The notes under the pieces are model-generated. The model saw only the letters and a program-made list of their open reading frames with translations, had not been told where the DNA came from and ran no database searches. The translations under genes and the position numbers were made by a program. Positions 5,820 through 28,000 of a DNA stretch of 64,000 bases are shown in pieces. This DNA is from Candidatus Moraniibacteriota bacterium (GTDB taxonomy: Bacteria; Patescibacteriota; Minisyncoccia; Moranbacterales; UBA1568). How positions within the stretch are numbered: the first letter of the stretch is position 1; every line of letters starts with the position of its first letter. The stretch lies in contig JAHFOO010000003.1 in NCBI GenBank assembly GCA_023261645.1, positions 31,951-95,950 on the forward strand. Direction: 5' to 3'.

Positions 5820-5824
5820 ATTTT

Positions 5825-8684: not shown

Positions 8685-8690
8685 ACATCT

Positions 8691-9500
8691 ATGTTTCCCG
8701 CACATCTGCACCAACAAAGCTCGCAAATGACTCCCTACGCTTCAGGAAGAGATCATTCTTCTTCATCTCTGCCAGCACTTGTCAGTATCCGAAACATTGT
8801 GAGACGCTATGAACCTCCAGAAGGAGTTCCTATCACAGCCTTAAACGGTGTCAGTCTGGAAATTTACAAAGGTGAGTTCCTCGCAGTGACAGGTCATTCC
8901 GGTTCAGGCAAAAGTACTTTTTTGAACCTCATCGGACTCATTGATGAACCGAGCAGTGGCGATATCATCATAAACGGTCGCAATACCTCCCTTTTCAACG
9001 AAAAAGAACGTACCGAATTTCGATTGAATGCCTTGAGTTTCGTCTTCCAATCCTTCAATCTCATAGAAAATTTCACGGCACTCGAAAATATCGCCTTTCA
9101 ACTCCGTTTGCAAGGATATAGTAAAAGAGACGCTCACAAACAAGCTCAGGAAACACTGAACTATCTCGGCCTTCAAGACCGGGCCCGTCTCTACCCACGA
9201 GAATTGTCCGGAGGAGAACAACAGCGTATCGCCATCGGACGAGCGCTCGTCAAAGATTCCTTCCTTCTGTTGGCCGATGAACCAACGGCTCATCTCGATT
9301 CCAAGAATTCTCAAAATGTTATGGAACTTCTCTCCCAAGTCAATCGTGAATTCGGACGGACCATCGTTCTGGTCACTCACGAAACGGAAGAAACAGCATT
9401 CGCCAACCACACAGTCACGTTCCGCGATGGCCGGATAACCAGTGATGAGAGAGCAGAAACGGAAAATTCTGCTATAATACGGAAAACATCCTATGTTTAA
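8691..9500 (+). CDS. ABC transporter ATP-binding protein (MacB/LolD-type)
   Basis: Walker A GHSGSGKST, ABC signature LSGGEQQRIAIGRAL, Walker B LLADEPTAHLD. Its stop overlaps the next gene's start (ATGTTTAA). Confidence 0.9.
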   Translation: MFPAHLHQQSSQMTPYASGRDHSSSSLPALVSIRNIVRRYEPPEGVPITALNGVSLEIYKGEFLAVTGHSGSGKSTFLNLIGLIDEPSSGDIIINGRNTSLFNEKERTEFRLNALSFVFQSFNLIENFTALENIAFQLRLQGYSKRDAHKQAQETLNYLGLQDRARLYPRELSGGEQQRIAIGRALVKDSFLLLADEPTAHLDSKNSQNVMELLSQVNREFGRTIVLVTHETEETAFANHTVTFRDGRITSDERAETENSAIIRKTSYV

Positions 9501-11049: not shown

Positions 11050-11053
11050 AGTT

Positions 11054-11671
11054 ATGTCTCTTGTTTGTAAAAAAGCAACTACCATCGGAGAAAAAAATCG
11101 GGCTCGCTCCATCGTAGAACACGAATATCTCAAGATGGGTTATCTCATACACAAAGAGGCAACACCTCCACAGATACCCAGTACTCCCTATCTCAGGGAA
11201 GCAACATCCGAAACATATGCTCTCTATTTAGACAAGAAAATCATCGGCACCATTTCGATAATTATGGACTCGGTACACGGACTGCCGATGGACGCGCTTT
11301 TCAAAAGCGAACTTGATACCTTTCGGAAGAAAGACGAGCACCTCGCAGAAGTGGTACAGCTCGCCATCGATGAAGAGATACTCGCTCAATCAGGAATGCT
11401 CAAGAAAAACATTGAGCGTCTCCGTTTCCTTACTTCATTGTTTCAAGCAGTACTCCGATCTGCTCATCGGGCACATATCAGCACATTATGCATTATGGTA
11501 AACCCAAAGCACGATACTTTTTATGAACACATCGGTTTCCGGACCATTGGAGAGGAGAAATCCTATCCCCCTCTCCAGAATGCACCGGCTGTACCGAAAG
11601 TGCTCACACTCAAAAACAAGCTAAATAGTATCGTAAAAAGCCACATCCTAAGCCAAATATTATATATTTAG
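11054..11671 (+). CDS. N-acyl amino acid synthase-like GNAT-fold N-acyltransferase (OlsB/FeeM family)
   Basis: A 205-aa protein. Its size and pattern (RSIVEHEYLKMGYL...) fit the acyl-ACP-dependent N-acyltransferase (Acetyltransf_5, autoinducer-synthase-like) family. It sits directly upstream of the PlsC-like, PPTase and ACP genes. Confidence 0.45.
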   Translation: MSLVCKKATTIGEKNRARSIVEHEYLKMGYLIHKEATPPQIPSTPYLREATSETYALYLDKKIIGTISIIMDSVHGLPMDALFKSELDTFRKKDEHLAEVVQLAIDEEILAQSGMLKKNIERLRFLTSLFQAVLRSAHRAHISTLCIMVNPKHDTFYEHIGFRTIGEEKSYPPLQNAPAVPKVLTLKNKLNSIVKSHILSQILYI

Positions 11672-11737
11672 AAAGACATTCTGAGTAAGGACAAAGGTGC
11701 TATAATAGAAGTACGCTTTGATGATCATAGAGCTCTT

Positions 11738-12421
11738 ATGGCTGATGACGATAAACAGACAATGTCTCTTTTCAGAAAGATGAAGGATGGTACCATCGTC
11801 TTTTTCCAATTACTTTCGTATTTTTTCTTTCTTTTTTTCTTCCGCCCGTTTCTTCATATTAAACGCACATTACCGGATAATATCTCACGATTGAATCGCG
11901 GATCGCTCCTGGTAGCGAACCATCAGGCAAAAACCGACCCATTCATCGTTATGGGATATCTGCCGTTGCTTTCGTTTCTGAAACTTATTCCTGTACGTTT
12001 CCCAGCAGACAATCATTATATGAAAATTCCTCTCGTCGGTTCCGTTCTCCGGCTTTTCGGATGTTATGATGTCGGAGGGAACACACGTGAACGAATGCTT
12101 GTGCTTCTCCGTACATGTGAGCTCATCCGGTCCGGAAAAACAGTCTTTCTTTTCCCTGAAGGAGAGATTGCTCAATCGGAGAGAGTTCCATTTCAGAAGG
12201 GCATCAACTTTTTCATACGCGAAGCGAAAGCAGTCATTTTCGTAAGAATAGATGGCTTCAACCCTCAGAATATTGCGTCACTGGAAGAAAAGGAACGTCG
12301 ACTCTCCTATGGAGAAGTATGCGATACCGAGCTCACCAGCCTCGATGTCGTCAAACTGCAGGATTATTTCGACCTCCTGACAGAAAGCCGTTCCCCATTC
12401 ATTATCCGCAATGATAAATAG
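11738..12421 (+). CDS. Lysophospholipid/1-acylglycerol-3-phosphate O-acyltransferase family (PlsC/OlsA-like)
   Basis: HX4D motif NHQAKTDPF and FPEGE motif (LFPEGEIAQSERV). Confidence 0.75.
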   Translation: MADDDKQTMSLFRKMKDGTIVFFQLLSYFFFLFFFRPFLHIKRTLPDNISRLNRGSLLVANHQAKTDPFIVMGYLPLLSFLKLIPVRFPADNHYMKIPLVGSVLRLFGCYDVGGNTRERMLVLLRTCELIRSGKTVFLFPEGEIAQSERVPFQKGINFFIREAKAVIFVRIDGFNPQNIASLEEKERRLSYGEVCDTELTSLDVVKLQDYFDLLTESRSPFIIRNDK

Positions 12422-12431
12422 ATAGTGCCTT

Positions 12432-13103
12432 ATGCAGATTTCCTTCTGCGAATATTCCTCAGTAGCCACCGTATCACCGGAACAGTTCCTCAATAAGGAA
12501 GAATACCTTCGGTGGTCGAAGCTTCCTCAAAAGAAAAAAATGAGTTCCCTCATCGGCAAGGTGACTGCGAAACGAGCGACGCAAGCTCTCTGGGAAAAAC
12601 ATTGCGGAGCAATACTTCCATATCATACTATCAATATACGACATACCTCTGCCGGTATGCCACGCATACATACATATCCGATTCTCCTCAGCATCAGCCA
12701 TACCGATGACTGTGGCATCGCTCTGGTCGCTTTGGATAAGCCTCATCTTAGGATAGGAATAGATATCGAACGCATCCGCACCTTCAATCAGAAATTCATC
12801 GATGGCTTCCTCACAAAAAATGAACAATCCTGGTGCGAAGAGAAGTCTGCCGATGAAAAAAAGAGACGACAGACGCTCTCTTGGTCTTACAAAGAAGCCT
12901 TCCTCAAAGCTCTCGGCACAGGATTACGAGAACATCCGAAAACTGTTGAGATTTCTCCCATAACTTCTGCAAAGGTTTTCCTCTCTTGCAACGGCTATCG
13001 AGGAGAAGGCAGGGAGATAACACTCCCAGGAAAATGGGGGAACTATGTCGCTACTGTAGTAGAAATATATCCATTCACAAAAAAAGAATCCCTGTATCAA
13101 TAA
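12432..13103 (+). CDS. 4'-phosphopantetheinyl transferase
   Basis: GIDIERI and WSYKEAFLKALGTG motifs. Confidence 0.75.
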   Translation: MQISFCEYSSVATVSPEQFLNKEEYLRWSKLPQKKKMSSLIGKVTAKRATQALWEKHCGAILPYHTINIRHTSAGMPRIHTYPILLSISHTDDCGIALVALDKPHLRIGIDIERIRTFNQKFIDGFLTKNEQSWCEEKSADEKKRRQTLSWSYKEAFLKALGTGLREHPKTVEISPITSAKVFLSCNGYRGEGREITLPGKWGNYVATVVEIYPFTKKESLYQ

Positions 13104-13116
13104 TATCTCTGCGACT

Positions 13117-13362
13117 ATGCCACACACTGACACTCTCACAACCAAGGTATATGAAATCATACACCAAGCGACACGAGTCCCCCTCGAAAAGATTTCACTA
13201 AATGCCGAACTTGAAGACCTTGTTGATGATTCCATACAACTGTTCCAGCTCATCCTTTCTTTCGAAGAGGCTTTCGGAATGCGCGCGAAGTATCAAGATC
13301 TTATGAAAATCATCACGGTCGGCGATATTGTCGATTATCTGAAAAAAATACAGTCTCTTTGA
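13117..13362 (+). CDS. Acyl carrier protein
   Basis: An 81-aa protein with the DLVDDSIQLFQLI motif (DS serine attachment site) in an ACP-like helical context. Confidence 0.8.
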   Translation: MPHTDTLTTKVYEIIHQATRVPLEKISLNAELEDLVDDSIQLFQLILSFEEAFGMRAKYQDLMKIITVGDIVDYLKKIQSL

Positions 13363-13406: not shown

Positions 13407-14750
13407 TCACTCATACCTCAAGGCTTCCAAAGCATGAATTTTTGAGGCGCGCATAGCAGGAAATATCCCCGTCACCAATCCGAGGAAAAAGATGAAGACA
13501 ATGATAGAAATAATGAATATGGAAGGGACTTCCACAAATGACAATGGGGTAACATTATATTTCTCCCCCAAAAAATTGATAACATAATTTACACCTCTGG
13601 CCACTCCATAACCACCGAGCAACCCGATGCTTCCGCCAAAAAAACTGATCAGAAACGCTTCAAAAATAAACATTTTAAATATATCAGCTCGCTTGGTTCC
13701 GAGCGCTTTGAGGATACCAACCTCCTTGGTACGTTGCAAAAGAGAGATACTCAAAGTATTCAACATTCCCATTGCAGAAATAGACATTATGATGGTACCG
13801 AAAATCACCAGAATAATCCGAACTATCAGAAAAAATGAATTGATTTCGGTAATAGTATCGATAATACTCTCTGTAGTGAAGGCTGTCTGCTCTATCTGAA
13901 GACGTACCGACTCAATGACACTGTCATCCTTGACACGTACTTTTGCAAACTGTCCTGCGACATTGCCATATCGTTTCTGAAACTCTTCAAAAGAAAGAAA
14001 TGCGTACACAGCATCATCCTTGGTTTGGTCTTTCACAATACCCACTATCGTAAGCGTATCATCAGTATCTCTCTTGGACGTTTCTTCCGGTGTTGATTCT
14101 GTATCATTAGCAAACATATCAGCTGTCACAGTACTCGTGTATGTTATCTGTTTTCCGATGCTCTCTTCCGGTTTCTCAAAACCGAGGAGATTGGCAAGTT
14201 TTGGTGTGATAAGGACGCCATTCGATTCAGTAAAAATCTTGCTCCCTATTTCTTGATTGATGTCAGAACGAGCCAAATCAAGATAGTGTCGACTGATCAC
14301 ATTGATAACAACATCCGTCTGTGTATCACCATTTGAAAATTTTCCTCCGACACTTGTTCGTGTTTCCACTTGCTCAACTCCTCCGATATTTCTCATTCTC
14401 TCAAGTGCGACATTGTCCATCAAAATAAAATTATCGAGACTCTTATTGCTCACATCGATGATATTGCTCGGATTATTCTTGGTCACCTCTCGAATGACCA
14501 TATCCTGGATTCCGAATCCAAGCGAGATGAGTAAAGTAATGATGCCGATGCCGATGCCAACACCTCCAATCGTCAGGATAGAACGGAGTTTGTTTGAAAT
14601 CATATTCCGATATCCGATCAATAATACCGATGAAAATTTCATATGAGCAAAAGGTTCTCTCTTTGTCGAGCGCGTGCGAACGAAAAGATTCCTCTTCCTA
14701 TCCGGAGGAGATGCTGGTTGTTGGTTGCTGTTTCGTAATGAAGAATGCAT
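13407..14750 (-). CDS. ABC transporter permease, MacB/FtsX-type with large periplasmic domain
   Basis: N-terminal transmembrane helix, a roughly 220-aa periplasmic domain, and a C-terminal FtsX four-helix region (ILKALGTKRADIFKMFIFEAFLISFFGGSIGLLGG). Confidence 0.8.
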   Translation of the reverse strand: MHSSLRNSNQQPASPPDRKRNLFVRTRSTKREPFAHMKFSSVLLIGYRNMISNKLRSILTIGGVGIGIGIITLLISLGFGIQDMVIREVTKNNPSNIIDVSNKSLDNFILMDNVALERMRNIGGVEQVETRTSVGGKFSNGDTQTDVVINVISRHYLDLARSDINQEIGSKIFTESNGVLITPKLANLLGFEKPEESIGKQITYTSTVTADMFANDTESTPEETSKRDTDDTLTIVGIVKDQTKDDAVYAFLSFEEFQKRYGNVAGQFAKVRVKDDSVIESVRLQIEQTAFTTESIIDTITEINSFFLIVRIILVIFGTIIMSISAMGMLNTLSISLLQRTKEVGILKALGTKRADIFKMFIFEAFLISFFGGSIGLLGGYGVARGVNYVINFLGEKYNVTPLSFVEVPSIFIISIIVFIFFLGLVTGIFPAMRASKIHALEALRYE

Positions 14751-14756
14751 ATTTTT

Positions 14757-15497
14757 TTAACTTTTTTTCATATCTTCCTCGATCATATCAAACGAATTCT
14801 GATTAATGACATCAGAAACGATTTTCCCATCCACCATACTGACAATTCTCGAACTGAACTTATACTGATCCGTGTTGTGCGTCACCATCAGAATGGTGAT
14901 GCCAAACTGCTTTGAAATATTTCTCACAAGTGTCATCAGTACCTCTCCTGCTTTCATATCGAGGTTGCCAGTCGGCTCATCAGCAATGATGAACTTCGGA
15001 TTAAGCAGGAGCGAACGAGCAAGAGCGATCCGTTGTTGCTGACCTCCGGAAAGATCGAATGGACGATGATTTGCCCACTCTCCCATCCCCACAAGTTCAA
15101 TCAGTTTGGCAGCAATAGTGACGCTTTCGTGAAATGTCTTGCCAGCGATAACTCCTGGAATGGCGATATTTTCGATTACTGTCAATGATTTGATCCAAAA
15201 TGGCTGTTGCGGAATAAAACCAATATTTTTATTCCTGAAATTTGCTCTCCAGTCCTTGCTCTGGGTCCAAATATCGTCGAGCTCGATAGTAACCGTTCCT
15301 TCTGTGGGGCTTTCGAGACCATAAATGGTATGAAGAAGCGTCGATTTTCCACAACCGGAAGGACCAACTAACAATATGAACTCACCTTTACGAACTTCAA
15401 GGTTGATACCGTGTAACACCTGAATGTCTTGAGTTCCTACGCGAAAAGACTTCTTCAGATTCATCACTTTGATAACAATTTCTTTTTCTTCGACCAT
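14757..15497 (-). CDS. ABC transporter ATP-binding protein (MacB/LolD-type)
   Basis: Walker A GPSGCGKST, signature LSGGQQQRIALARSL, Walker B IIADEPTGNLD. Confidence 0.9.
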   Translation of the reverse strand: MVEEKEIVIKVMNLKKSFRVGTQDIQVLHGINLEVRKGEFILLVGPSGCGKSTLLHTIYGLESPTEGTVTIELDDIWTQSKDWRANFRNKNIGFIPQQPFWIKSLTVIENIAIPGVIAGKTFHESVTIAAKLIELVGMGEWANHRPFDLSGGQQQRIALARSLLLNPKFIIADEPTGNLDMKAGEVLMTLVRNISKQFGITILMVTHNTDQYKFSSRIVSMVDGKIVSDVINQNSFDMIEEDMKKS

Positions 15498-15515: not shown

Positions 15516-18500
15516 CTAATTGCCACGAAGTCTCGACATCCATCCGAAATTATTGAGAAAGGTTCTCGTCACCACTTCAGCCGCGCTGGATGTAGCTTGT
15601 TCTACCGGAACAGTAACTGCATCAGAGACCGTTACATTTTCTGCCTCATCATACGCTTCTATCTGATAACTATACACATCCCCCGCCTCCGCCGGAATAG
15701 TAATGAGATGGTAGGTATTGTAAGTATCGTCGCTCGTCGACTGCTCAAATGATTTTGTTACGATTCCCTTCGCATATGCCACGTGTATACGTGATGCTTC
15801 GTCGGTTTCGATTCTGATATACACATTGGCCTGAGCATTTGTGCCTCGTCCAGACACTCGTCCCATTGCCTTGTTTGAAATAATTCTTGGTGGGCGAGAA
15901 TCAGTACGTGTCGTAACCTTTTGTTCGAAGGGTCTCGCCTGAATATGATACTGGTCATTTCCGGTCACGGTAACCATATATTCTACCGCAGGATCAAGAC
16001 TGGAAATCTCCGCCGTATGTTCTGTCGTCAAATCTTCTGTCAAATATGTGTGGTTGTCTCCCGATCCTGATTTATAGTATATCAGAGTCGATGTTGGTAC
16101 ATTGGTCTTGTACGTGATAGTCACTGTCGGTAAATCGACATTTTCTTTGTTTTCTATAATCACCTCAGACACTACCGGTTCTTCCGGCGTACTGAATGAA
16201 TACTGGTCCGAAGAGAACGTGTTCAAATCACCATCGATACAGTCTATCTGTGCCGAATAATCAGAAGTAGGCTGAAGATTGTCTATCTTCTGGATATGAC
16301 TCGATCCCCCCGATGTTTCCTCGATACTATACGAACCATATTTCAGAGTACAGGTAGCGCTCACGTTTGTCTTCCAATTGACATAGGCTGTGTACAATTG
16401 AATGTCAGTAATCGTCAAATCAGAAATGACCGGCGGTGGCAACGTCGTGAATGTATCCACTGTTGACGTACCGATATTGCCATCCGGATCGATATACTTC
16501 ACGCTATAAAAATATTTCGTCCCAGCATCCAGCCCTTTCACCAAGACTCCGTGTGTCGTCACTGAATCCACCTGTCCAGTTGTCTCACCAAGCGAGATGG
16601 ACTTTCCATATTCGATAAATGAACTCGCCACTCTATCGGTCGCCCACTCGAAAGTCGCTTGAAAAGATTGTGTCGTATAGCTCGGCGTACCGACTAATTT
16701 TGGCGCGGTCGTGTATTTTCCTGTCGGAATAATCGAGACTGTCGAAGAAGCGGCGGAATAATTATTCGTCTTGTCTTTGGACTTCACATAATAATAATAC
16801 AGCTTACTTTCCAAAGTAGTATCACCGGATGCAAGGAGGATCTCGCCGGAATCGACATAAGCACTTCCTGTCGTCTTGGCAATTTCGGTGAATGTAACGT
16901 TATCTTCGGAACGATAAATGACAAACCCATCAAAGTTGGCAACATTGATGCTATCCGGACGAGCCCACTTCACTGCGACACCATATTTGGCGTTTTCTCT
17001 GTCTGAAGTATCAAAAACCTGTACATTACCCGGAATAGGCGGGTTACTAGTATCAGCCGTAAATGTTACTGTAGCATAGTTCCCCCATTCGATATTTCCC
17101 GATTCGTCCCCAGCCACCACGAAGAAGAGGTTGTCACCCTTCTGAGTCGCAAAGGCGCTCGGGCCAGCCGCTTTGGCCGTCGTCGCCACTGAGTTGTTTG
17201 CCGTTGGCAACATATTGATCGAATAATGATAAATAATTTTCGTCGGATCCCCTGCGTACGAAGCTGGTGTATCCCAGGAAAAAGTAAATGAGTTATTCGT
17301 AGAAGAAGATGGTGTCGCAGTCAAACTCTGTGGTGGTGTCGGCGCGCTGGCGCTGTAATAGTATTCCTGCGGAAGTGGCGGAGAAACATTACCAGCACCA
17401 TCCACCACTCGAATATAAAATTTATTCTTACCAGATTGATAGGCACCAACGATATGATTCACATTCGGAATAGTCAGTGCCACTTGGTTGACATCAGGGA
17501 TATCTACCCAGACATTTGGAACATCACCATCAGTACGATACTGTAGTTTCGCCACACCGGAAAACAGATCAGCTGAATCAGCTGACCAGGTGAAAGCAAA
17601 ATTATCCGTCGCCGTATAGCCGGTCGGGAGAACAGAAACAACAGACGGGTTGGTCGGAGCGATATTATCAAACTTGTAGATGAACGCACTGTACGAAGTA
17701 GATGTGATCATTCCCGCATTATCTTTTGTCATTATCTTCAAATAGTATGTCTGTCCTGCTGACAAACTGCTCGCCGTATAATTATTCGCTGTTTGAAAAT
17801 TCACCGGGTCGGCATTTATGTCTATACCGAAGTACACATAGTAGCCAGCAACTCCTGATCCGCCTACACCATCAGTCGCGCCATCGGCGACATCGACAGC
17901 TGGCCACTCAAAGTACGGCGCCGTATGATTGTACCAGGTATCCGTCGTCATACTCGTTACCTTTGTTCCGTCAGTATACGCACTGATGGCACTTGGATTG
18001 GTCGGTTCCGTGATGTCCTGATAGTAACTCACTGCATAATCAGTGATGAGTGGTGAGAAAATCTGATCCGATGATGAAAGATTCGCTCGTACTTGAAAAA
18101 AACCATTCGGTAGAGAGTTTATTTTGAATGTATGTGTTGTCCCCAATACCTGTTCATTGGAAACATTTGTCCAATTCTCCCACGTCGCTCCATCAGCAGA
18201 AGTTCTCGTTTCAAATGTGACAAAAGTATTGTTTGGTAACGTGTAGTTGACTGAAAAATTCGCCCACTTGTACACAGAAACGAGATTGATAGTCTCCGAA
18301 GTATAAACCCCCGTCTTCTGAAAACCAGTGCCGTTATCACTCGAACTCACCACGTAACTATAAAGTCCGTCTGGATAGGAGTTGGTGCCGTTTCCGGCGA
18401 TGACCCAGTTCCGATTGCTTGCGTGCTTCTGAAAACCACCAGTATTCACTTGCGCAGGAATATCCGTCACAGCACTCCAAGTACCTGAAAGACCATCGGC

Positions 18501-21500
18501 GATCCGATACCGATAATAATTCGAGGTGTTGAAACCACGAGTCATATAGATATATCCGTCTCCTCCATCGGCAATACTGCCACCGGTACTGATGGTGGCC
18601 GGTAGTATCGGCATCGCCGCCCAAGTACCCGCCCCGATATCATAGCGGTAATCCGTATTGTTTCCTCCACGAACCGAATAGATATACCCTCCATTATATA
18701 TCATCTCTCCACCGGTCGTAACAGTGGGTGCTCCGACTGTAGAAAGTGCCGACCATCGAGAGCCATCACTCCCATTCAGATCATAGCGCCACCAAGTCGC
18801 CTGACCCACTCCACGTGTGAGGTAGATATATCGTAACCCATCATAGGTCATACTCGATCCGGTGCCGACCTGAATCGGAGGGCGATCTGTCGTCACCTCG
18901 CTCCAGGTATTGGTCGGGATATCGTATTTATAGAAATAATTACTGGCCCCGCTCCGTGAAGTGCGAATTGTTCCGGGAGAATAGTAGATCTCACTATGAT
19001 TCCCGACATACACAAGACTTGATCCATCATACGCTCCTACTGGCAATCGAGCCATTTCCGTTGTTGTTCCTGTTCTTATATTGTACCGGACAAAAACATT
19101 ATCATAACTGCCACGAATCATATACATATTTTCATTGTCATCAGTGACCGCAAATGTTCCGGCACCGAATGGGAAGTATGTCGTCGCATTGATTACTGCC
19201 GGCCCGAACAGTCCGCGGGTTGGTACCTGCCAGGAACTCTCAGCGATACTGTAACGATAAAAATTCGTCGTGTTCGCACCACGCAAGGCATAAATATAAC
19301 CGTGATACACCACCTGGGAAGCGCCGTGATCAAATGTTCCTGGAGTATCTGGCAATTGAGACCATTCATTGATGGCGACATTGTAACGGTAATAATTGTT
19401 TTTCCAATTACCACGAGTCATATAGACGCTGTTCGATGTCGCATCAAAGGCCAGGCTTCCTCCCGTATACACACCCGTCGGCGCCGAAGCCAGTACCGTC
19501 CAGGTATTGGCGACTTCGCCATGCGCTACATCCGTCGCGATGGAATATTTTGCAAAGTACGGGTAATAATTTCCTTGAACGACATAAACATTATTGCGCC
19601 CATCATATACGCTGTCAGAGCCATAATTGACCGTCTGCCCATCCGTGGCATTCGGATTGCCGAATTGCGCATTGACTTTGGCACTCCAAGAATCATTGAT
19701 CGTATCATACCGATAAAAGGCGTCATCACTCCCCGGCAAACCATAGATATACTGCGATCCATCATAGGAGATCGACCCGCCAGCGTAGAAATTCTTCGGC
19801 GCACTCGAAACAGTGGACCAAATATCAAGTGCGATATCATACTTCCAAAATGTCGGCAAATTCCCTCCTTGTGTGGCATAGAGAAACCCATTCGGACCCC
19901 TCTCGATCGATCCTCCATATCCGACCACCCCCGGTGTCACGGCTAGAGCAGTCCAGGTGTCTGTCGCCAGAGCATAGCGATAAAATCCAGTGGTATTACC
20001 ACCCCGAAGTGCAAAAATATAGTCACTTCCATCATAGGTCACTTGAACACTGTCACTACCATAATACATCAAAGCAGGAGCATTGGTTATACGCGACTGA
20101 TTCCAGAATCCGGTACCATCACTGGCACTGAGCCTAAGAGCATCGGTAACATCAGTCGCTGAAACATCTGAGAGTGTCCCCGCCGAAAAATCGGCCTGGC
20201 TCGTTTTCGTTGCAACCAATGCCGGCGCCACTCCGTTATACACATAGGTAAAAGCCGAATAAGTTGTGGCACTCACATTACCATTATTGTCTTTGGTCTT
20301 GATCCGGAGATAATAGGAAGTGGCAGTAAGAGCAGTATTTGCTTCATACGCAGTACTCGTTTGATACGATCCATCCACTGCCGGATCAGCACCGGCATTG
20401 GTACCAAAATAGACGTAGTACCCTTCTACTCCCGCCTCCGGACTACTCGCGCCAGAAAAGGAAAAGTACGGGTGTTCATATGAGTAGGATGATCCGGAAG
20501 TAAGCGTCACACCTCCGGTGTTTTTCGAGTAAGCGTTGACCGCAGTCGGATTGATGGGCAGTGTATCGGAGTTATTATAGGTTATGGTGTAATCAGAAGC
20601 CGTCGGTGTATTCGCGCCATCCGTCGTAGAAAGGGTGATCCGCACCTGGATATAGCGTTCTGGAGGCGAAGCAATGGCTGTACCACTCACTGCCTCCCAA
20701 TCCGACCACGTCTCGGCATCAGTACTCGTCCGAGTCTCATAGACGATGCTCGTACCGGCAGGTGTCGTACTGTTTGCGACAAACGACACCCAGTTCGATG
20801 CTTGTGATACATCAAGAGGTTCGCTCACATAACTCCCTGTACTCACGAAATTATTTGTTCCAGCCGTGAAGCTCCACATATCTGTCGTTGCCTGACCGGT
20901 CAGAGCATAGAAAGAATTGCCTCCAGCGTATTCGATGTTCGCACCATTGTACGGTCCACGTCCATAGAGGTATTTTTGATTTGATGGCAACATCCGCCAC
21001 GTATCAGTCGTAATGGTATACTCCCAGGTTTCGTCCTTATAGTACCCGGCGAGCGCATAAATCTTACCATTCGCAAATGTCAGACTAGTACCATAGTACT
21101 GGGCGAAAGGTGTTGAGGAAAGAGTTGACCACGTATTACTCCCCGTATTGAAACGAAGAAATGCCGTTTCGCCATCACCAAAGGTCGCGTACAGATTCGT
21201 ACCATCGGAAACCATTTTGGCACCGATATTCGCATTGTAAGTAACACCGCTCACCACCGAAGTAGCCAGCGTCGTCCAAGCCAACGTTGTGGAATTCAAA
21301 CTGCTGTACAAATTAGGAGTCCCATTCCCTCTCAAAACATACACTTTGTTATCCGAAGCATTATACACAGCACTTCCACCGTTTGATACTGTTCCCGGCA
21401 ATACCGTCATTACTGCCCAGGTATTCGTGGAAATTGTATATCGGTAGAAAGTTGTTGTTCCATTGCCGAGAGGATAATAAATGTAATTACCCACCAATGT

Positions 21501-23213
21501 CCCTGTCGTATCGGTCGGCGGAACTGTCGGCAGATTCGCCAGAGCCGTCCAGGTATTGGTGGCGGTCTCATATCGATAGAATCCCGCCGTACCGCCCCGT
21601 ATCGCATAAACATATGCTCCAGCCCCGGTTACTCCGTTCCAGAGAAGATCACTTCCTGTCCCCATAGTGATGGTGTTGTTCATCACCTGTTGTGGTCCCA
21701 CCCAATCCCCCGTCGTCCCAAGAGCTGGATTAAATTTCCACAGATCATAAGTGCCATTGCCACGAAGCATATAGATCAGATTGTCATTGGCATTGAACGC
21801 GAGAGAGGCATAGTTGGCCGCGGCTGGTGTCGTCGCCAGTACTGTCCAGCTATTGCCAGTGATATCATAGCGCAAGAATCCAGTCTGACCCGCAGACCGC
21901 GCATAATAGATATATCCATTGGCATAGGCTCCCTTCTCATCACCGTTGAAATTCTGACCGGTCGTGATGTCGGTGCGGGCACTCCACGTGTTGCTGGCGA
22001 TATTATAGCGATAGAATGTCAAAGTATTCGCACCACGTGGCGTATAGAAATTCCCATCATACCCATAGACCAGATTGGCACCGGCCGATACCGTGGCCGA
22101 TACCGGTGCGAGACTCTGCCACTCGCCAAGTGAAACATTGTAACGCCAGAAATCCGTACTGCTATTCCCTCGCATTACATAGGGGTTGGTCCCGTCAAAT
22201 CCGATACTCCCACCCGTATAGATGGTGTCGAGAAGATCAGGGAGGGCCGTCCAGGTATCGGTCGCCACGTCATAAGAATAAAACTTTTTCGAATACCCTC
22301 CAAAAATCACATAAATGAGGCCATTGGCGCTATCACTGACCATGTCTGCCCCGTAATACACCGGGAATGGCAGATCAGACAGCTCCGTCCATTCATTGAG
22401 CACCGAATCATACTTCCAAAATGCCTTATCCGACAATCCGCGCATGACATAGAGATTATTGCCCACGAAGATCGAGCTTGATCCCGCGCTCACCGTATCG
22501 GGAGGTACCGCCCAGGTGCGTGCCGACCAACTCCCATCCGATGCCAATTGTAACGCGTCAGTAGCACTATCGAGAGAAATATCTGCCGTCGTTCCCATTC
22601 CCCATTCTGTTTCAGTGGTGATAGTACGTGCAAATGGAGCCCCTGATACACTGACTCCACCTATATATACCGCCACAACGACCACTCCCACCACAATAGC
22701 ACTTCGCCACGTTATAGAATGAGCTATTTGCATGCACCGACGAATTTTCTTGTACCACCACCCGAAAAAGAGTGCTCCATAATAACGCCTGAAGTATGCT
22801 TTGCCATAACTTCTCTTCTGGGCAGGAGTATATTTATTCAAGAATTCACTCAGGCTCTCTTCTTCAACTATCAGACGTTTTTTCGGCATTTCCTCTGAGA
22901 GAAATCTTTTTTTGAAATTGATTTGGTATTTTTGTGCAAAAAGAGAAAAGCGACACCGTAATAGAGTAAAGAGACCAGATGGTTTTTTTACCTTTATTTC
23001 TGTCATTTTTTTCGAAATATCTTTTGTCACTGACTTTTCCGCCCAACAGTGCAAACGAGAAGATGGCTCTTTTTGTATGTCAACCTTCTTCCGTAACACC
23101 TTTCTTACAGACGTTGCCTTCCGTGATGCTTTTACCTCCCGGCCAGTAGCAGAAAACAGGTTCTCTGATAACGAGAGTCTTCTGATGTTTGTTTTTCTTT
23201 TTACGATAGCCAT
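15516..23213 (-). CDS. Giant (2565 aa) membrane-anchored surface protein with about 45-50 tandem Kelch-like beta-propeller repeats and C-terminal Fn3/Ig-like modules
   Basis: A basic N-terminal tail and one transmembrane helix (SAIVVGVVVVAVYIGGVSV) precede many roughly 50-aa repeats of the form Y[VI]Y..RG......F.RY[DN]...N.W. The C-terminal third is made of beta-sandwich-like T/S-rich modules. Start codon is the ATG at 23213. An in-frame ATG at 22889 is an alternative. Confidence 0.8.
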   Translation of the reverse strand: MAIVKRKTNIRRLSLSENLFSATGREVKASRKATSVRKVLRKKVDIQKEPSSRLHCWAEKSVTKDISKKMTEIKVKKPSGLFTLLRCRFSLFAQKYQINFKKRFLSEEMPKKRLIVEEESLSEFLNKYTPAQKRSYGKAYFRRYYGALFFGWWYKKIRRCMQIAHSITWRSAIVVGVVVVAVYIGGVSVSGAPFARTITTETEWGMGTTADISLDSATDALQLASDGSWSARTWAVPPDTVSAGSSSIFVGNNLYVMRGLSDKAFWKYDSVLNEWTELSDLPFPVYYGADMVSDSANGLIYVIFGGYSKKFYSYDVATDTWTALPDLLDTIYTGGSIGFDGTNPYVMRGNSSTDFWRYNVSLGEWQSLAPVSATVSAGANLVYGYDGNFYTPRGANTLTFYRYNIASNTWSARTDITTGQNFNGDEKGAYANGYIYYARSAGQTGFLRYDITGNSWTVLATTPAAANYASLAFNANDNLIYMLRGNGTYDLWKFNPALGTTGDWVGPQQVMNNTITMGTGSDLLWNGVTGAGAYVYAIRGGTAGFYRYETATNTWTALANLPTVPPTDTTGTLVGNYIYYPLGNGTTTFYRYTISTNTWAVMTVLPGTVSNGGSAVYNASDNKVYVLRGNGTPNLYSSLNSTTLAWTTLATSVVSGVTYNANIGAKMVSDGTNLYATFGDGETAFLRFNTGSNTWSTLSSTPFAQYYGTSLTFANGKIYALAGYYKDETWEYTITTDTWRMLPSNQKYLYGRGPYNGANIEYAGGNSFYALTGQATTDMWSFTAGTNNFVSTGSYVSEPLDVSQASNWVSFVANSTTPAGTSIVYETRTSTDAETWSDWEAVSGTAIASPPERYIQVRITLSTTDGANTPTASDYTITYNNSDTLPINPTAVNAYSKNTGGVTLTSGSSYSYEHPYFSFSGASSPEAGVEGYYVYFGTNAGADPAVDGSYQTSTAYEANTALTATSYYLRIKTKDNNGNVSATTYSAFTYVYNGVAPALVATKTSQADFSAGTLSDVSATDVTDALRLSASDGTGFWNQSRITNAPALMYYGSDSVQVTYDGSDYIFALRGGNTTGFYRYALATDTWTALAVTPGVVGYGGSIERGPNGFLYATQGGNLPTFWKYDIALDIWSTVSSAPKNFYAGGSISYDGSQYIYGLPGSDDAFYRYDTINDSWSAKVNAQFGNPNATDGQTVNYGSDSVYDGRNNVYVVQGNYYPYFAKYSIATDVAHGEVANTWTVLASAPTGVYTGGSLAFDATSNSVYMTRGNWKNNYYRYNVAINEWSQLPDTPGTFDHGASQVVYHGYIYALRGANTTNFYRYSIAESSWQVPTRGLFGPAVINATTYFPFGAGTFAVTDDNENMYMIRGSYDNVFVRYNIRTGTTTEMARLPVGAYDGSSLVYVGNHSEIYYSPGTIRTSRSGASNYFYKYDIPTNTWSEVTTDRPPIQVGTGSSMTYDGLRYIYLTRGVGQATWWRYDLNGSDGSRWSALSTVGAPTVTTGGEMIYNGGYIYSVRGGNNTDYRYDIGAGTWAAMPILPATISTGGSIADGGDGYIYMTRGFNTSNYYRYRIADGLSGTWSAVTDIPAQVNTGGFQKHASNRNWVIAGNGTNSYPDGLYSYVVSSSDNGTGFQKTGVYTSETINLVSVYKWANFSVNYTLPNNTFVTFETRTSADGATWENWTNVSNEQVLGTTHTFKINSLPNGFFQVRANLSSSDQIFSPLITDYAVSYYQDITEPTNPSAISAYTDGTKVTSMTTDTWYNHTAPYFEWPAVDVADGATDGVGGSGVAGYYVYFGIDINADPVNFQTANNYTASSLSAGQTYYLKIMTKDNAGMITSTSYSAFIYKFDNIAPTNPSVVSVLPTGYTATDNFAFTWSADSADLFSGVAKLQYRTDGDVPNVWVDIPDVNQVALTIPNVNHIVGAYQSGKNKFYIRVVDGAGNVSPPLPQEYYYSASAPTPPQSLTATPSSSTNNSFTFSWDTPASYAGDPTKIIYHYSINMLPTANNSVATTAKAAGPSAFATQKGDNLFFVVAGDESGNIEWGNYATVTFTADTSNPPIPGNVQVFDTSDRENAKYGVAVKWARPDSINVANFDGFVIYRSEDNVTFTEIAKTTGSAYVDSGEILLASGDTTLESKLYYYYVKSKDKTNNYSAASSTVSIIPTGKYTTAPKLVGTPSYTTQSFQATFEWATDRVASSFIEYGKSISLGETTGQVDSVTTHGVLVKGLDAGTKYFYSVKYIDPDGNIGTSTVDTFTTLPPPVISDLTITDIQLYTAYVNWKTNVSATCTLKYGSYSIEETSGGSSHIQKIDNLQPTSDYSAQIDCIDGDLNTFSSDQYSFSTPEEPVVSEVIIENKENVDLPTVTITYKTNVPTSTLIYYKSGSGDNHTYLTEDLTTEHTAEISSLDPAVEYMVTVTGNDQYHIQARPFEQKVTTRTDSRPPRIISNKAMGRVSGRGTNAQANVYIRIETDEASRIHVAYAKGIVTKSFEQSTSDDTYNTYHLITIPAEAGDVYSYQIEAYDEAENVTVSDAVTVPVEQATSSAAEVVTRTFLNNFGWMSRLRGN

Positions 23214-23481
23214 GAGATTTCTATACTCGTTTTTCCTCGAGAAAGGTCTTTTTCAAAAAGCGAATTCCACACACAAAACAAAGAGTTTCCAAGAACCTTC
23301 TGGTTATAGTATACCACACAATGAAAAGAAAAAAAGTAAGAAATCCCCTTACAAATGCAAAAAAGAGCCATTCTCCAATAATGATACCTCACAACTATTT
23401 CCTCTCTCTTTCCTCTTGACAGATAATTGGTTTACTGATAAACTAGGAAACTGTTTTGTTGATAATTTTAAGAAATTTTTT

Positions 23482-23949
23482 ATGTATACAAATGACTCTC
23501 TCTCCCCTATTCTTCCTATCATTCATATTGCCCATCGATTCGAGGCGATCGCCCAAAGATATATCTTCCAACCGACAGGCTTCTCCCCTATGAGTATGAA
23601 TATCTTGCGATTGTTGCGTGACAATGGACCTCTGATTGCGAGTGATCTGATACGAATGACGGCCACAACCAAGTCGAATATGAGCCAACGACTGAGTTTC
23701 CTCGAAAAAGAACACCTCGTTTCAAGGATGCCTGCAAAAGAAAATGGCGACAAACGAAAAACAATGATTTCTCTCACAACATCAGGAAAGAAGAAAATCG
23801 CCACTCTTGAAGAAAGAATCAAAAAGGCTGAGATATCATTCGAAAAAAAATTCACCCCAAAAGAATTAGCCGACCATAAAGCCTTCTTTGAAAAACTCAG
23901 CATAATCCTCGACAATGGTGAATGTGAATTAACCAAAATATTTAAATAA
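23482..23949 (+). CDS. MarR-family transcriptional regulator
   Basis: Winged-helix region MNILRLLRDNGPLIASDLIRMTATTKSNMSQRLSFLEKEHLVSRMPAKENGDKRKTMISLT. The track ORF from 22912 extends over the divergent promoter region. The in-frame ATG at 23482 gives a typical 155-aa MarR. Confidence 0.7.
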   Translation: MYTNDSLSPILPIIHIAHRFEAIAQRYIFQPTGFSPMSMNILRLLRDNGPLIASDLIRMTATTKSNMSQRLSFLEKEHLVSRMPAKENGDKRKTMISLTTSGKKKIATLEERIKKAEISFEKKFTPKELADHKAFFEKLSIILDNGECELTKIFK

Positions 23950-23954
23950 CCGGC

Positions 23955-25067
23955 ATGAAATCTATGCACAAGAAAAAAATCATCGTCACTCTTCTTTCAA
24001 TTCTGATACTCTTTATTCTCGCTTCGAATTTTTCTCGCAAGAAAACAGTTTCTGTCGAAGAAATACCCAAAAAACCTCTCACGGTCTCTGTTCAAAGTGT
24101 TTCTGAGAGCAAAACTATCACGCAAAAAAGAAGTTTCCCGGCCAGCATCGTCTCCGACCAAGAAGTAAAAATTACCGCGAAAATTGCCGGAACAGTTACC
24201 ATAGCTCCTGGCGCTCTCGGAGAAAAGATATCCAAAGGATCACTTCTCGCACGCATAGACGATCTGGGAGCACAGGCTATCGGAGATCAAGGACTGAGAA
24301 ATCTTCAAGTCCAACAATCCTCTCTCAGCGTCGAACAAGCCAAAAAATCGTACAATCTCACAAAACAAACCTACGATGATCTGAAGAAATCTTCGAGTGC
24401 TACCAGCGCACAAAAGGATACTGCCAAAACACAGAGAGATATCGCCAAATTACAGTATGAAAGCGCCATACTGGGATTAAATGGCACTATCGACAATCAT
24501 TCCGTCCTCTCTCCTCTCTCGGGCACCATCACAAGCAGAGCCGTTTCAGTCGGAGATTCCGTTTCGGTCGGACAGCTGATAGCCACAGTCAGTCAGTCTT
24601 CCACAGTGAAGGTTCAATTTTTTGTCGATGCCGAAGAAAGGAGTACACTCACGCGGGGACAGGAAATTTCTGCAATTGATACTGCTGGCACTTCTTTCCC
24701 ACTCGTAATAAAAAATATCGCTATCACAGCTGACCCTGTCACCAGACACTTTCTCATTGAAGCCTATCCGAAGAAACAAGATGCTTCTCTCCTCGCCGGT
24801 ACGATCATGACTGTCTCTTTTGAGACAATTATCAGACCAAAGACGGAAGATGCCCTTCTTCTACCATTGTCTGCTCTCAGTATCAGCCAAAATGAAAGCT
24901 CTCTTTTTATCGTAGAAAATAATACCGCGAAAAAAGAAGTGATTACCATACAAAACATCAGCGGAGAGAATGCTGAAGTCCTCTCTCATATTCCATCCGA
25001 ATCACTCATCATCATAGAAGGAAGCAAGCTCGTCACCGATGGACAACCAGTCGTCGTGGAAAACTAA
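23955..25067 (+). CDS. Efflux RND periplasmic adaptor subunit (HlyD/MFP family)
   Basis: N-terminal transmembrane/lipobox-like segment, a coiled coil, a lipoyl-like VSPLSGTITSRAVSVGDSVSVGQLIATV, and a beta-barrel C-terminus. Confidence 0.75.
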   Translation: MKSMHKKKIIVTLLSILILFILASNFSRKKTVSVEEIPKKPLTVSVQSVSESKTITQKRSFPASIVSDQEVKITAKIAGTVTIAPGALGEKISKGSLLARIDDLGAQAIGDQGLRNLQVQQSSLSVEQAKKSYNLTKQTYDDLKKSSSATSAQKDTAKTQRDIAKLQYESAILGLNGTIDNHSVLSPLSGTITSRAVSVGDSVSVGQLIATVSQSSTVKVQFFVDAEERSTLTRGQEISAIDTAGTSFPLVIKNIAITADPVTRHFLIEAYPKKQDASLLAGTIMTVSFETIIRPKTEDALLLPLSALSISQNESSLFIVENNTAKKEVITIQNISGENAEVLSHIPSESLIIIEGSKLVTDGQPVVVEN

Positions 25068-25094
25068 TCTCCCTCTAAAAATATCTCTCATCGT

Positions 25095-28000
25095 ATGGAA
25101 CATCCGAAAGAACCTCTCTCAACCGACAGCGTATATCTGAGTACACTCGAATTCACCCCCGAAAAACGCCATACCTGGCTCAATTTTTTCGTTTCAAATT
25201 TCCGTGTCGTCATCCTTCTTATTATGCTTATCTCGGGCTGGGGCATTTATTCCTTCCTCAACCTCCCTCGGGAATCCAACCCGGAAGTGAAAATCGCCAC
25301 AGCGATAGTCAGCGTCACTTATCCGGGGGTTTCCCCTTCTGATATGGAGGAACTCATCACCAAGAAAATCGAAACGGACATCTCCAGTGTCACTGGCGTG
25401 AACAAAATCACTTCTACTTCTGCCAACTCATCTGCCACGGTGGTCGTGGAATTCGATGCTGATCAGAATGTCGATGATGCCGTAAGAAGGTTGCGTGACA
25501 CGCTTCCGACCATCAGAAGAGATATCCCGACAGACGCCAATGATCCTGTGGTCAAAGAAATTTCCTTCGATGATACTCCTATCGTCACTTTTGCACTCAG
25601 TGGGCCTTACGATGGTTTCATACTGAGGACATACGCCGAAAAGATTCAAGACGAACTCGAGAAGATTCCAGGCGTCCGTGAGGTGGATATTTCTGGTGGC
25701 GATCAAAGTGAATTTGAAGTGGCCTATGATCCGAAGAAGCTTGTTCTCTTCGGCATCACGGCAGACCAAGCCAATCAAGCCATAACCACCGCCAACAAAG
25801 CCATTCCTGCTGGAAACTTTGAAGGCTCGACATTCAGTTATTCTCTCCGCTCTGACGGCCGTTTCTATGATAGAGAGACACTGCGTACGATTCCTCTCAT
25901 TCATACCTCTTTAGGCGCTATCGTGTATTTGAAAGACATCGCGGATGTGAAAGAAAAAGCCAGAGAGAAAACAACCTACTCGCGTTTTTCCCTAAGTGGT
26001 GAAATGCCGGAAAACGCCGTCACACTTCAAATCATCAAGAGAACAGGAGGATCGATCATTGATACTGTGGGCAGTGCCCGCATCAAAATCGATGAACTCC
26101 TCAAGACTTTCCCATCTGATATCACTATTTCAGACACGGTCAATCAGTCCGATCGTATCAAAAAAGATTTTGATCAACTTACTCATGATTTCCTCCTCAC
26201 ACTTATTCTCGTCGTCGGTCTCCTCTTTCTTATCGTTGGACTGAAAGAAGCGTTTGTCGCTGGTATCGCTATTCCTCTCGTTTTTTTCGTCACCTTCGGA
26301 GTGATGCAAGCGACAGGAACATCACTCAATTTCCTTTCCATTTTCGCTCTGCTTCTCTCGCTCGGACTCTTGGTAGACGATGCTATCGTGGTAGTTTCCG
26401 CTACCAAACAATATATGAAAACAGGCAAATATACGCCTGAGGAAGCCGTTTTGCTCGTTCTTTCTGATTTCAAAGTTGTCCTTGTTTCGACGACGCTTGC
26501 CACCGTTTGGGCCTTCCTTCCGCTCCTTCTCGCATCCGGAATGATCGGAAAATTTATCAAATCAATTCCCATCACAGTTTCAACAACACTCATCGCCTCT
26601 CTCCTCATCGCTCTTATGATCAACCATCCGTTGGCGGCTGTCCTCGAGAGGATCCGACTCACAAAAAAATTCTTCTGGATTATCTTCATTTCCATACTCG
26701 CTCTTGGAGCATTCTCCACGATACAGCATTCTTCTCTCGGATTCATTTTCACATTTTTTTCTTTCATACTTCTCGCATGGATGCTTTTCTGGTATTTCGG
26801 AAAAGGAACAAACATTCTTGAAAAGAATACGCTCCTCACGGAAGAAGAATGGGAGAGTGATGATAGTATCAAAGAAAAACTTCGCTCCCAAGGAGATCGA
26901 GAAAATTCCAGCTTCGGAAGCAAACTCATCCACGGCATCTTTCATTTCGACCGTATTCTTCCTGTATACGAGAAATACCTCCGCATTGCCACCAATACCC
27001 GAAAACACCGCATCATCACGCTTCTTTCTACGCTTGCATTGTTCATCTTTGCAGTAACCCTTCCGATTATCGGTGTTGTCAAATCAGAATTTTTCCCGCC
27101 TGCCGATGGCGATGCTTTGTATATAAGCCTGCGTGCTCCTATCGGCCTCAATCTTGATCAGACGGATATTCTGACACGAGAAGTTGAGAAAAGACTTTCA
27201 ACCACTCCAAACATAGTGAACTTCTCTACGATTATTGGAAACCCAGGATCAGGTGGTGGCTTCGGAGGAGGGAGTTCCAGCACATCGAATACCTCTTCTA
27301 TCACTATCAAACTCGTTCCAGAAGAAGAGCGCACTATCAAGGCGTATGATATCGCACAGCAGATACGCACGGAGCTTTCCGATATCGAAGGAGCTACCAT
27401 CACTGTTTCCACTCCTAGCGGTGGACCGCCATCCGGCAGTGCCTTCCAGGCTCAGATCGCCGGAGAAGATTTACAGACATTGGATAAAATTGCCACTGAT
27501 CTGAAACCGATCGTCGCTTCTCTTCCCGGTATTGTCAATGCAGATATTTCCCTCAAAGACGCTCCGGCTGAATATACATTTGCTCTTGATAACGCCAAAA
27601 TGGAGCTGTATGATATCAACGCGGTAGTTGTCGGTGGAACACTGCGAACAGCTCTTTCCGGCACGACCGTGACGACCATCATCCGTGACAATAAAAATAT
27701 CGATGTCGTCGCTCGTTTCGACAAAGATTCTCTTCCTACACTGGAAACTATCCAGAATTTACAGATTCTCAACCTCAAAAAACAACCGGTATTCATCAAA
27801 GATGTCGCCACGGTACAACTCACTCCGACAGTCGATGCCATCACGCGTATCGATCAAAAAAGAACCGTTCTTCTGACCGCTGACGTCAGCGGTACGACCA
27901 ATGCTACTCAAGTCGTCAAAGAGTTTCAGGACAAAATCGCCAAAGAGTATGTCCTTCCCGAAGGGTATGCCATCACTTACGGCGGAGAGAATGAACAGAA

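Follow-up and report, generated by a model that had tools for sequence, protein, structure and literature searches.

A giant Kelch-propeller surface protein encoded with a MacB-type ABC pair in Patescibacteria

Introduction

Bacteria of the Candidate Phyla Radiation (CPR/Patescibacteria) constitute a large share of bacterial diversity and live attached to other cells. Apart from type IV pili, the surface machinery of these bacteria is, to our knowledge, poorly characterized. Type VII ATP-binding cassette (ABC) systems, such as FtsEX, LolCDE, and MacB, work by mechanotransmission. Here, we analyzed a 64,000-nucleotide (nt) stretch of DNA from a Candidatus Moraniibacteriota bacterium (assembly GCA_023261645.1, contig JAHFOO010000003.1, positions 31,951 to 95,950; hereafter the window, whose own numbering is used below), and found that a gene for a giant membrane-anchored protein with Kelch-type propellers (15516..23213, minus strand) is the first in a unit of three genes, the other two encoding an ABC ATPase and a MacB-type permease. 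The protein has a constant architecture with a fixed number of blades and has orthologs throughout the phylum. Its linkage to the ABC genes is invariant, and in its wider family interchangeable heads are carried on a conserved stalk.

Among described systems, FtsEX with its partners EnvC, PcsB, CwlO, and RipC resembles this unit in combining an ATPase with a four-helix FtsX-fold permease that bears a large outside domain, and in its tight gene linkage. FtsEX has no transmembrane substrate and passes ATP-driven motion to an outside partner, which, by analogy, we take as a likeness to the unit here. However, the partner in this case comprises approximately 2400 amino acids (aa) of propellers and FN3 domains rather than a coiled-coil hydrolase regulator, the permease has MacB_PCD as its outside domain instead of the FtsX ECD, the two ABC proteins fall far short of the cut-offs for the FtsX and FtsE models, and the unit includes no cell-wall hydrolase. 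MacAB-TolC, LolCDE, and YtrEF share the combination of MacB_PCD and FtsX permease domains, and the ATPase is closest to LolD. Nonetheless, the unit lacks an HlyD-type adaptor, an outer-membrane channel, and a lipoprotein signal, and its NCBIfam scores are all far below the family cut-offs. The two downstream genes are type VII ABC components that fall below every curated subfamily threshold.

The propellers belong to the Kelch fold family. Unlike Keap1, KLHL12, KLHL17, and NanM/YjhT, the giant protein apparently has four propellers in one extracellular chain, without BTB/BACK domains or the NanM catalytic signature. Membrane-anchored ectodomains in which paired propellers precede beta-sandwich or FN3 domains are also found in BT4663, LRP6, and ROS1/Sevenless, and glycan binding by BT4663 would agree, by analogy, with a lectin-like role. 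Only the general layout of BT4663 and LRP6 is alike, however (template modeling (TM) score ~0.3), with blades belonging to the Reg_prop and YWTD families, respectively. BT4663 also differs in blade number (two seven-bladed propellers), and the giant protein has no kinase or signaling domain. A BT4663-type hybrid sensor was considered and rejected, given 10% identity and no Reg_prop, Y_Y_Y, or kinase domains in the Pfam results. Bap, SasG, and LapA-type adhesins are likewise very large surface proteins of repeated beta domains, yet they are characterized by near-identical DNA repeats and copy-number differences among strains, neither of which was found here. The literature searched on CPR/Patescibacteria surface propeller and MacB-type proteins yielded no description of the giant protein or the unit, and one candidate paper turned out to deal with a host protein. 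The pairing of a giant propeller/FN3 surface protein and a MacB-type ABC system that is probably coupled to it, assembled from parts of known kinds, appears to be new.

Results

Linkage to an ABC ATPase and permease

An earlier note on this DNA described the giant gene without any conserved link; we found that it heads a three-gene unit with ATPase and MacB-type permease genes. The second gene (14757..15497, minus strand) begins 18 nt past the giant stop codon and encodes a 246-aa ABC ATPase (Pfam ABC_tran, E = 5e-35), whose nearest NCBIfam models were LolD (closest), DevA, and FtsE, with scores below every cut-off. The third (13407..14750, minus strand) encodes a 447-aa MacB/FtsX-type permease (FtsX, E = 1.3e-19; MacB_PCD, E = 1.8e-16), which carries the MacB_PCD extracytoplasmic domain and for which the best solved relative was Bacillus subtilis YtrF (9o9x; E = 9e-25 over the full length), followed by MacB and LolC/E/F. 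An ABC_tran ATPase paired with an FtsX/MacB_PCD permease identifies the two as type VII ABC components.

Gene context was surveyed in 82 related loci from many CPR lineages. An ATPase homolog was directly downstream of the giant gene in 77 of the 82 and a permease homolog in 75, and the loci without partner genes end too soon downstream. Wherever downstream sequence suffices, the ATPase starts between −30 and +540 nt from the giant stop codon and the permease is next. The sole exception in spacing was locus L015 (+1895 nt), where the giant open reading frame (ORF) is interrupted. None of the 14 other window genes tested (5052–30807) recurs beside the giant gene in these loci. The conserved unit in this survey of 82 loci includes no membrane-fusion (HlyD-family) adaptor, in contrast to MacAB-TolC. 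The only HlyD-type match was to an unrelated upstream gene in L006 and L038 (two copies of one contig), where it is part of a separate MacB system. On this Parcubacteria contig, genes for a YknX-type adaptor, an ATPase, and two MacB permeases (L006 2714..7459, plus strand) lie just upstream of the giant gene, such that two MacB systems adjoin; of these, the giant-linked permease subfamily includes just the downstream one. The other MacB permease in the window (7497..8684) is not detectably close to that subfamily.

Named homologs of the giant protein were all from Candidatus Moranbacteria, Parcubacteria, or other Patescibacteria, in keeping with the episymbiont-type lineage proposed earlier, and a pattern scan of one genome per species identified 328 GTDB species encoding a relative. 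Record titles of relatives named Moran-, Berkel-, Levy-, Woese-, Shapiro-, Collier-, Pace-, Roizman-, and Dojkabacteria, and WWE3. A second homolog search returned no Saccharibacteria-named protein, and "Saccharibacteria" labels in the scan were confined to bulk-binned metagenome-assembled genomes (MAGs), whose names are unreliable.

Exchange of heads on a conserved stalk

The C-terminal 936 aa of the giant protein were searched against 1.84 billion cluster representatives (50% identity clusters), and 798 clusters matched at E ≤ 1e-30. Among the best 150 of these 798, 53 were at least 2300 aa long, of which 28 have the two blocks of Kelch repeats and the other 25 are practically devoid of blades (at most two isolated hidden Markov model (HMM) matches). 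Alignment of the query with the non-Kelch proteins examined covers their last ~830 residues and reaches their C-terminus, and all 12 of the 12 tails inspected keep a terminal helix with a ..(F/I/V)G(W/F)(L/I).. motif. The heads of three non-Kelch relatives examined have Laminin_G_3 domains, in two cases together with DUF2341, PKD/Big, or glycine-rich domains.

Both head-swapped relatives on informative contigs (2/2) are directly followed by genes for an ABC ATPase and a MacB permease; P0252 and P0240, with contigs that end at the gene, were outside this count. Permeases of the head-swapped relatives matched giant-linked permeases of the Moranbacteria type at E values of 1e-52 to 1e-72 and the longer ones of loci L001 and L005 at 1e-38 to 1e-54, compared with 1e-4 to 1e-20 for other MacB paralogs, and on these scores belong to the giant-linked subfamily. 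As head-swapped loci keep the ABC pair, the pair travels with the stalk and C-terminal helix rather than with the Kelch head. The same C-terminal stalk and helix were also found in larger proteins, namely P0125 (3315 aa), P0133 (4418 aa), and P0240 (6321 aa; L086 120..19085), the last of which consists almost wholly of FN3/Pur_ac_phosph_N-like domains; all three contigs end at the gene.

Architecture of the giant protein

The giant protein matched Pfam Kelch_1 at 71.8 bits (cut-off 20.1; E = 3e-20) and Kelch_6 at 58.7 bits (cut-off 25.3), far above threshold for the Kelch repeats recognized in the earlier note. A blade HMM built iteratively from the protein's own repeats detected 24 blades of ~45 aa, comprising 12 at aa 240–797 and 12 at aa 1049–1630, which span ~1140 of the 2565 residues. 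This HMM found no convincing blade elsewhere in the protein, and a 14-residue match at aa 2377–2390 (E = 0.0066, 3.1 bits) was discarded as chance. The 45–50 blades counted earlier therefore could not be recovered, as the HMM, together with secondary structure (DSSP) of the AlphaFold model of block 1, indicated 24, read as four propellers; the earlier figure appears to be the quotient of full protein length and repeat length. The remainder of that description, of a membrane-anchored giant protein with several Kelch propellers followed by beta-sandwich modules, is supported. The modules had also been called rich in threonine and serine, and this enrichment is only slight (Ser + Thr of 22%–28%, versus 19%–21% in the propeller blocks and 21% in the whole protein).

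The ectodomain is organized as two super-modules, all encoded on the minus strand. Super-module 1 begins with beta strands (aa 193–239, 22497..22637; AlphaFold residues 1–45, with a predicted local distance difference test (pLDDT) score of 78–90), the motif of which is found again at the start of super-module 2. These are followed by Kelch block 1 (aa 240–797, 20823..22496), with 12 blades modeled as two six-bladed propellers, and by a beta-sandwich and FN3-like domain (aa 798–995, 20229..20822; DSSP residues 585–798 of the AlphaFold model), which includes a weak Pfam Ig_Rha78A_N match at aa 945–985. Super-module 2 comprises a linker and N-terminal strands (aa 996–1048, 20070..20228; delimited by alignment of the two modules), the 12 blades of Kelch block 2 (aa 1049–1630, 18324..20069; identified with the blade HMM), and a beta-sandwich and FN3-like domain (aa 1631–1870, 17604..18323; AlphaFold and BLASTP against module 1). 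In the linker region, pLDDT is low at model residues 802–809 and 838–851, while the sandwich/FN3 part of super-module 2 has a pLDDT of ~90 (residues 1–220 of a model of aa 1630–2565).

An AlphaFold2 model of aa 195–1045, run with an alignment of 31 sequences (30 orthologs), is compact (pLDDT 89.5; predicted TM-score (pTM) 0.74) and consists, according to DSSP, of 12 four-stranded blades, then a beta-sandwich, and then an FN3-like domain. Top Foldseek matches to the whole model were the tandem-propeller ectodomains of the BT4663 glycan sensor (Bacteroides) and LRP6, and designed six-bladed Kelch proteins matched one propeller (TM 0.72–0.74). Each 12-blade block is therefore best read as two six-bladed propellers. 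Block 2 would, by homology to block 1, form two further six-bladed propellers, giving a best reading of four in the whole protein. The four-stranded blades in a five- to seven-bladed propeller that are expected of Kelch domains are thus predicted, with closure of the rings presumed from the model. Residues 1046–1880 are collinear with residues 195–1045 (29% identity over 808 residues, E = 1e-74), and the double propeller, sandwich, and FN3-like domain were therefore duplicated in tandem in an old event. Invariant residues in the propeller module were limited to G, W, Y, F, P, D, S, V, and A, with no invariant His, Cys, Glu, or Lys. A PDB sequence search with the whole protein returned nothing at E ≤ 0.001, and an NCBIfam scan returned no meaningful family.

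The stalk (aa 1871–2540, 15594..17603, minus strand) has approximately seven FN3/PhoD_N-like beta-sandwich domains, as indicated by AlphaFold, Foldseek, and weak Pfam fn3/PhoD_N matches. The model of aa 1630–2565 (pLDDT 87, pTM 0.39) is an all-beta, beads-on-a-string chain with a closing alpha-helix, and Foldseek matched this model only to FN3/Ig chains, including titin/MyBP-C, cytokine receptors, ROS1/Sevenless, and an Aureispira grappling-hook protein. The region from aa ~1730 to the C-terminus is common to relatives with other heads. Model residues 915–933 and conservation delimit a C-terminal amphipathic helix (aa 2541–2565, 15519..15593, minus strand), with the helix proper at aa 2544–2562 (sequence AAEVVTRTFLNNFGWMSRL). 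Its hydrophobic moment is 0.45, compared with 0.24 ± 0.11 in shuffled sequences, and its mean hydrophobicity is 0.12. The helix is kept in Kelch-headed and non-Kelch-headed relatives, with a family-wide motif of ..(F/I/V)G(W/F)(L/I/M)... No C-terminal sorting signal (such as LPXTG, PEP-CTERM, or GlyGly-CTERM) was matched in NCBIfam at E ≤ 1, and the C-terminus is amphipathic rather than hydrophobic as a sorting signal would be. No lipobox was detected in the giant protein.

Stability of the repeat array

The repeat array had been considered a likely site of recombinational length variation, and a comparison of repeat number among relatives had been proposed in the earlier note. Neither the gene itself nor such a comparison supports variation. 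Within the giant gene, the longest repeat is 22 nt by reference, with 91% identity in its best copy. Exact copies reach at most 17 nt, and the gene has no tandem DNA array. The closest 120 database relatives (37%–100% identity, 2215–2672 aa; 119 plus the window's own product, P0001) were used as the ortholog set. Two blocks of 10–12 blades were detected with the blade HMM in 119 of the 120, with fewer detected as divergence increases. The exception was P0067, in which the first block was only partly detected, and the two-block layout also occurs in more distant representatives. Query coverage was at least 90% in 118 of the 119 orthologs. From aa 200 to the C-terminus, identity to the query stays close to 50% throughout, without a variable region, and alignment occupancy over the same span is at least 94% bar one 50-residue window. 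Blades within the protein share a mean identity of ~30% with one another, whereas same-numbered blades in distant orthologs (37%–38% overall identity) are 39%–53% identical. Divergence of the blades therefore predates the separation of these lineages, and each blade has been retained in its own place ever since. The giant gene is a fixed-architecture locus rather than a length-variable repeat locus, and a copy-number-variable repeat adhesin was accordingly rejected as a classification (no near-identical tandem repeats, and a constant blade layout). A long repeat array need not mean a variable locus.

Reading frame, N-terminus, and permease size

The giant ORF (2565 codons plus stop) is uninterrupted in the ORF list and its translation. 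The same product is listed under NCBI, Logan, and ENA as P0001 (2496 aa, with the start called at M70), and because it is identical in these sources, an assembly artifact or frameshift is unlikely. The single intact ORF reported earlier thus stands. Candidate start codons are M1 (23213), M70 (23006), and M109 (22889). No Shine-Dalgarno sequence is well placed before any of the three, and the start of the gene is uncertain. The ~270-bp intergenic region 5′ of the giant gene (23214..23481), shared with a divergent MarR-like gene, presumably holds the promoter. A promoter and terminator scan gave a promoter-like site at 23416–23444 on the plus strand and no convincing minus-strand site in the region; its results were near background and were not used.

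As described in the earlier note, the protein starts with a basic cytoplasmic tail (aa 1–165, 22719..23213, minus strand; net charge +29) followed by one membrane helix. The tail is conserved among relatives only at aa ~110–165 (22719..22886), with the motif KKR..IE.ESL.EFL..Y....S.G.AY.RR, and alignment occupancy over aa 1–100 is 0.16–0.21. The transmembrane helix, the sole hydrophobic helix in the protein, lies at aa ~166–192 (22638..22718, minus strand; hydropathy scan and alignment) and ends in ...VSGA-P. The proline directly after the alanine at the helix end suggests an uncleaved signal anchor.

N-termini differ among lineages together with permease size. Moranbacteria-type proteins have a long tail, the conserved juxtamembrane motif, and a helix ending in ...SAP or ...GAP, where a proline after the small residue should block signal peptidase, and their permeases are 398–462 aa. 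Microgenomates-type proteins have short signal-peptide-like N-termini with AXA-type sites, and permeases of 557–854 aa. In lineages with the largest permeases (802–854 aa), an extra 138-aa ORF lies between the giant gene and the ATPase (L001 15136..15552, plus strand; same place in L051, L059, L060, L064, L074, L078, and L082). This ORF had no Pfam or NCBIfam match, and its product combines a single transmembrane helix with a single FN3/PhoD_N-like domain similar to those of the giant stalk. Judging from these sequence patterns, co-variation of anchor and permease would fit two physically associated partners with differing means of anchoring.

Neighboring genes

The giant gene is divergent from genes for a MarR-like regulator, an HlyD-type adaptor (23955–25067), and an AcrB-type resistance-nodulation-division (RND) pump of 1133 aa (25095–28496), which together occupy 23482..28496 on the plus strand of this CPR genome. 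The true start of the MarR-like gene is probably near 23482 rather than at the TTG at 22912. The divergent layout noted earlier is present, whereas a functional link to the giant gene is not supported, as homologs of the MarR, HlyD, and RND genes were found in none of the 82 related loci, including loci 74%–79% identical to the window. The divergent arrangement is therefore incidental, and the operon was rejected as a regulator or partner of the giant gene.

A second MacB-type system is located at 7497..13362 (plus strand), with genes for a permease (7497–8684), an ATPase (8691–9500), and an HlyD-type adaptor (9493–11049). Directly after it are genes for a FeeM-like N-acyl amino acid synthase (11054–11671) and an acyltransferase (11738–12421), and then for a phosphopantetheinyl transferase (12432–13103) and an acyl carrier protein (13117–13362), also on the plus strand. 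This cluster looks like one that makes and exports a lipo-amino acid or similar lipid. Two tandem GDSL-family lipase/acylhydrolase genes (5052..6628, minus strand; 255 and 267 aa) might be tied to lipid scavenging. Elsewhere in the window are a third HlyD-type adaptor gene (38988..40043, minus strand), three in 64 kb being many for a small genome, and a 1083-aa ORF with a GTG start and no Pfam match at E ≤ 1e-5 (51380..54631, minus strand).

Discussion

We consider it somewhat probable that the giant protein presents a ligand-binding head on a conserved stalk and is coupled to a dedicated MacB-type mechanotransducer. The product would be an N-in, single-pass surface protein, with propellers acting as a non-enzymatic, lectin-like binding head that is evolutionarily interchangeable with LamG/DUF2341 heads. 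Work with the ABC system would fall to the conserved stalk and C-terminal helix. The ABC system would contact the giant protein by way of its stalk, C-terminal helix, or anchor, and ATP hydrolysis in the cytoplasm would serve to hold, assemble, or mechanically actuate the surface protein. The model for actuation is FtsEX acting on EnvC, PcsB, and CwlO. Parts of this reading differ in strength. Functional coupling of the giant protein to the ABC pair is very probable, while a binding role for the heads seems about evenly poised. Actuation by the pair, rather than biogenesis or release, is suggested only tentatively. We infer ligand binding from the lectin-like folds, the replacement of heads by LamG, and the lack of invariant His, Cys, Glu, or Lys in the propeller module. 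By analogy, the ligand is probably a glycan or other envelope component.

Several points weigh against this interpretation. Conserved gene order could mean co-regulation only, with contact between giant protein and permease being a step beyond it, and the binding role is drawn from fold analogy. The nearest solved relative of the permease, YtrF, is without established function. Co-variation of anchor and permease tracks phylogeny and may represent perhaps only one or two events, and the calls of signal-peptide cleavage or non-cleavage on which the two N-terminal types depend are heuristic. In addition, the taxon names of relatives are MAG labels, some of which are clearly unreliable (for example, "uncultured Gammaproteobacteria").

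Alternatively, the ABC pair could be a LolCDE-like biogenesis or release system that extracts a membrane-embedded anchor or helix from the outer leaflet, such that the protein is released or builds an envelope layer. Among known families, LolC/E, LolD, MacB, and YtrF come nearest to the permease and ATPase, the C-terminal amphipathic helix is universal in the family, head-swapped relatives included, and many orthologs have cleavable-looking signal peptides, so that something besides the N-terminus must retain or position them. Uniform conservation across the phylum also suits a structural envelope component better than a host-specific adhesin. However, no lipobox or known C-terminal sorting signal (NCBIfam) was detected, the conserved cytoplasmic segment and the proline after the helix in Moranbacteria-type proteins argue for permanent anchoring, and a coat or released layer would call for an abundance of the protein that is without support. 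We regard this alternative as unlikely. Still less likely is a pump for ordinary efflux or peptide resistance whose only tie to the giant gene would be the operon they share. Small molecules are often exported by MacB-type pumps, and the window also holds a second MacB system and an RND pump; yet the adjacency is kept in ~75 loci whose other neighbors all differ and outlives replacement of the head domain, the linked permeases form their own subfamily apart from MacB paralogs in the same genomes, and the conserved unit has no membrane-fusion adaptor.

Two further explanations, which concern the propellers, are very improbable. A host-attachment adhesin that gains surface variation as recombination changes its array length would be in keeping with a giant surface protein in an episymbiont-type lineage, and propellers and FN3 stalks are common among adhesins. 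Nonetheless, the short identical copies (≤17 nt) and lack of tandem DNA repeats, the lower identity among blades of one protein (30%) than between orthologous blades (39%–53%), the layout of ~12 + ~12 blades kept across orthologs, and the even conservation over the ectodomain all count against the variable-repeat part of this explanation, though not against attachment itself. As for an extracellular enzyme, such as a NanM-like sugar mutarotase or a galactose oxidase-like oxidase, the Pfam NANM model (PF24996) scored 32 bits against a cut-off of 45, the propeller module has none of the invariant His, Cys, Glu, or Lys residues looked for, Kelch domains that only bind ligands (Keap1 and KLHL proteins) match better, and lectin-like LamG domains replace the heads in relatives. 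The NanM/N-acetylneuraminate mutarotase label assigned automatically to some orthologs was rejected, being below threshold and describing a single periplasmic Kelch domain rather than four propellers. The results here correct automatic labels of this kind, such as "N-acetylneuraminic acid mutarotase".

The three-gene unit recurs in every related locus examined that has enough downstream sequence, and the stalk-helix family comprises at least ~800 clusters. Differing heads on a constant stalk, helix, and ABC pair provide a testable split between a target-binding part and a motor-facing part. In its boldest and rather doubtful form, our preferred reading of a head and stalk coupled to a mechanotransducer would describe a new ATP-powered surface machine, ancestral to much of the CPR, in which a MacB-type motor grips the stalk or helix and drives deployment or movement. 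If so, the C-terminal amphipathic helix, with its glycine-tryptophan (G-W) motif, would act as a hitherto undescribed signal recognized by a type VII ABC system, and the machine would be central to host-cell engagement or envelope building in these ultra-small bacteria.

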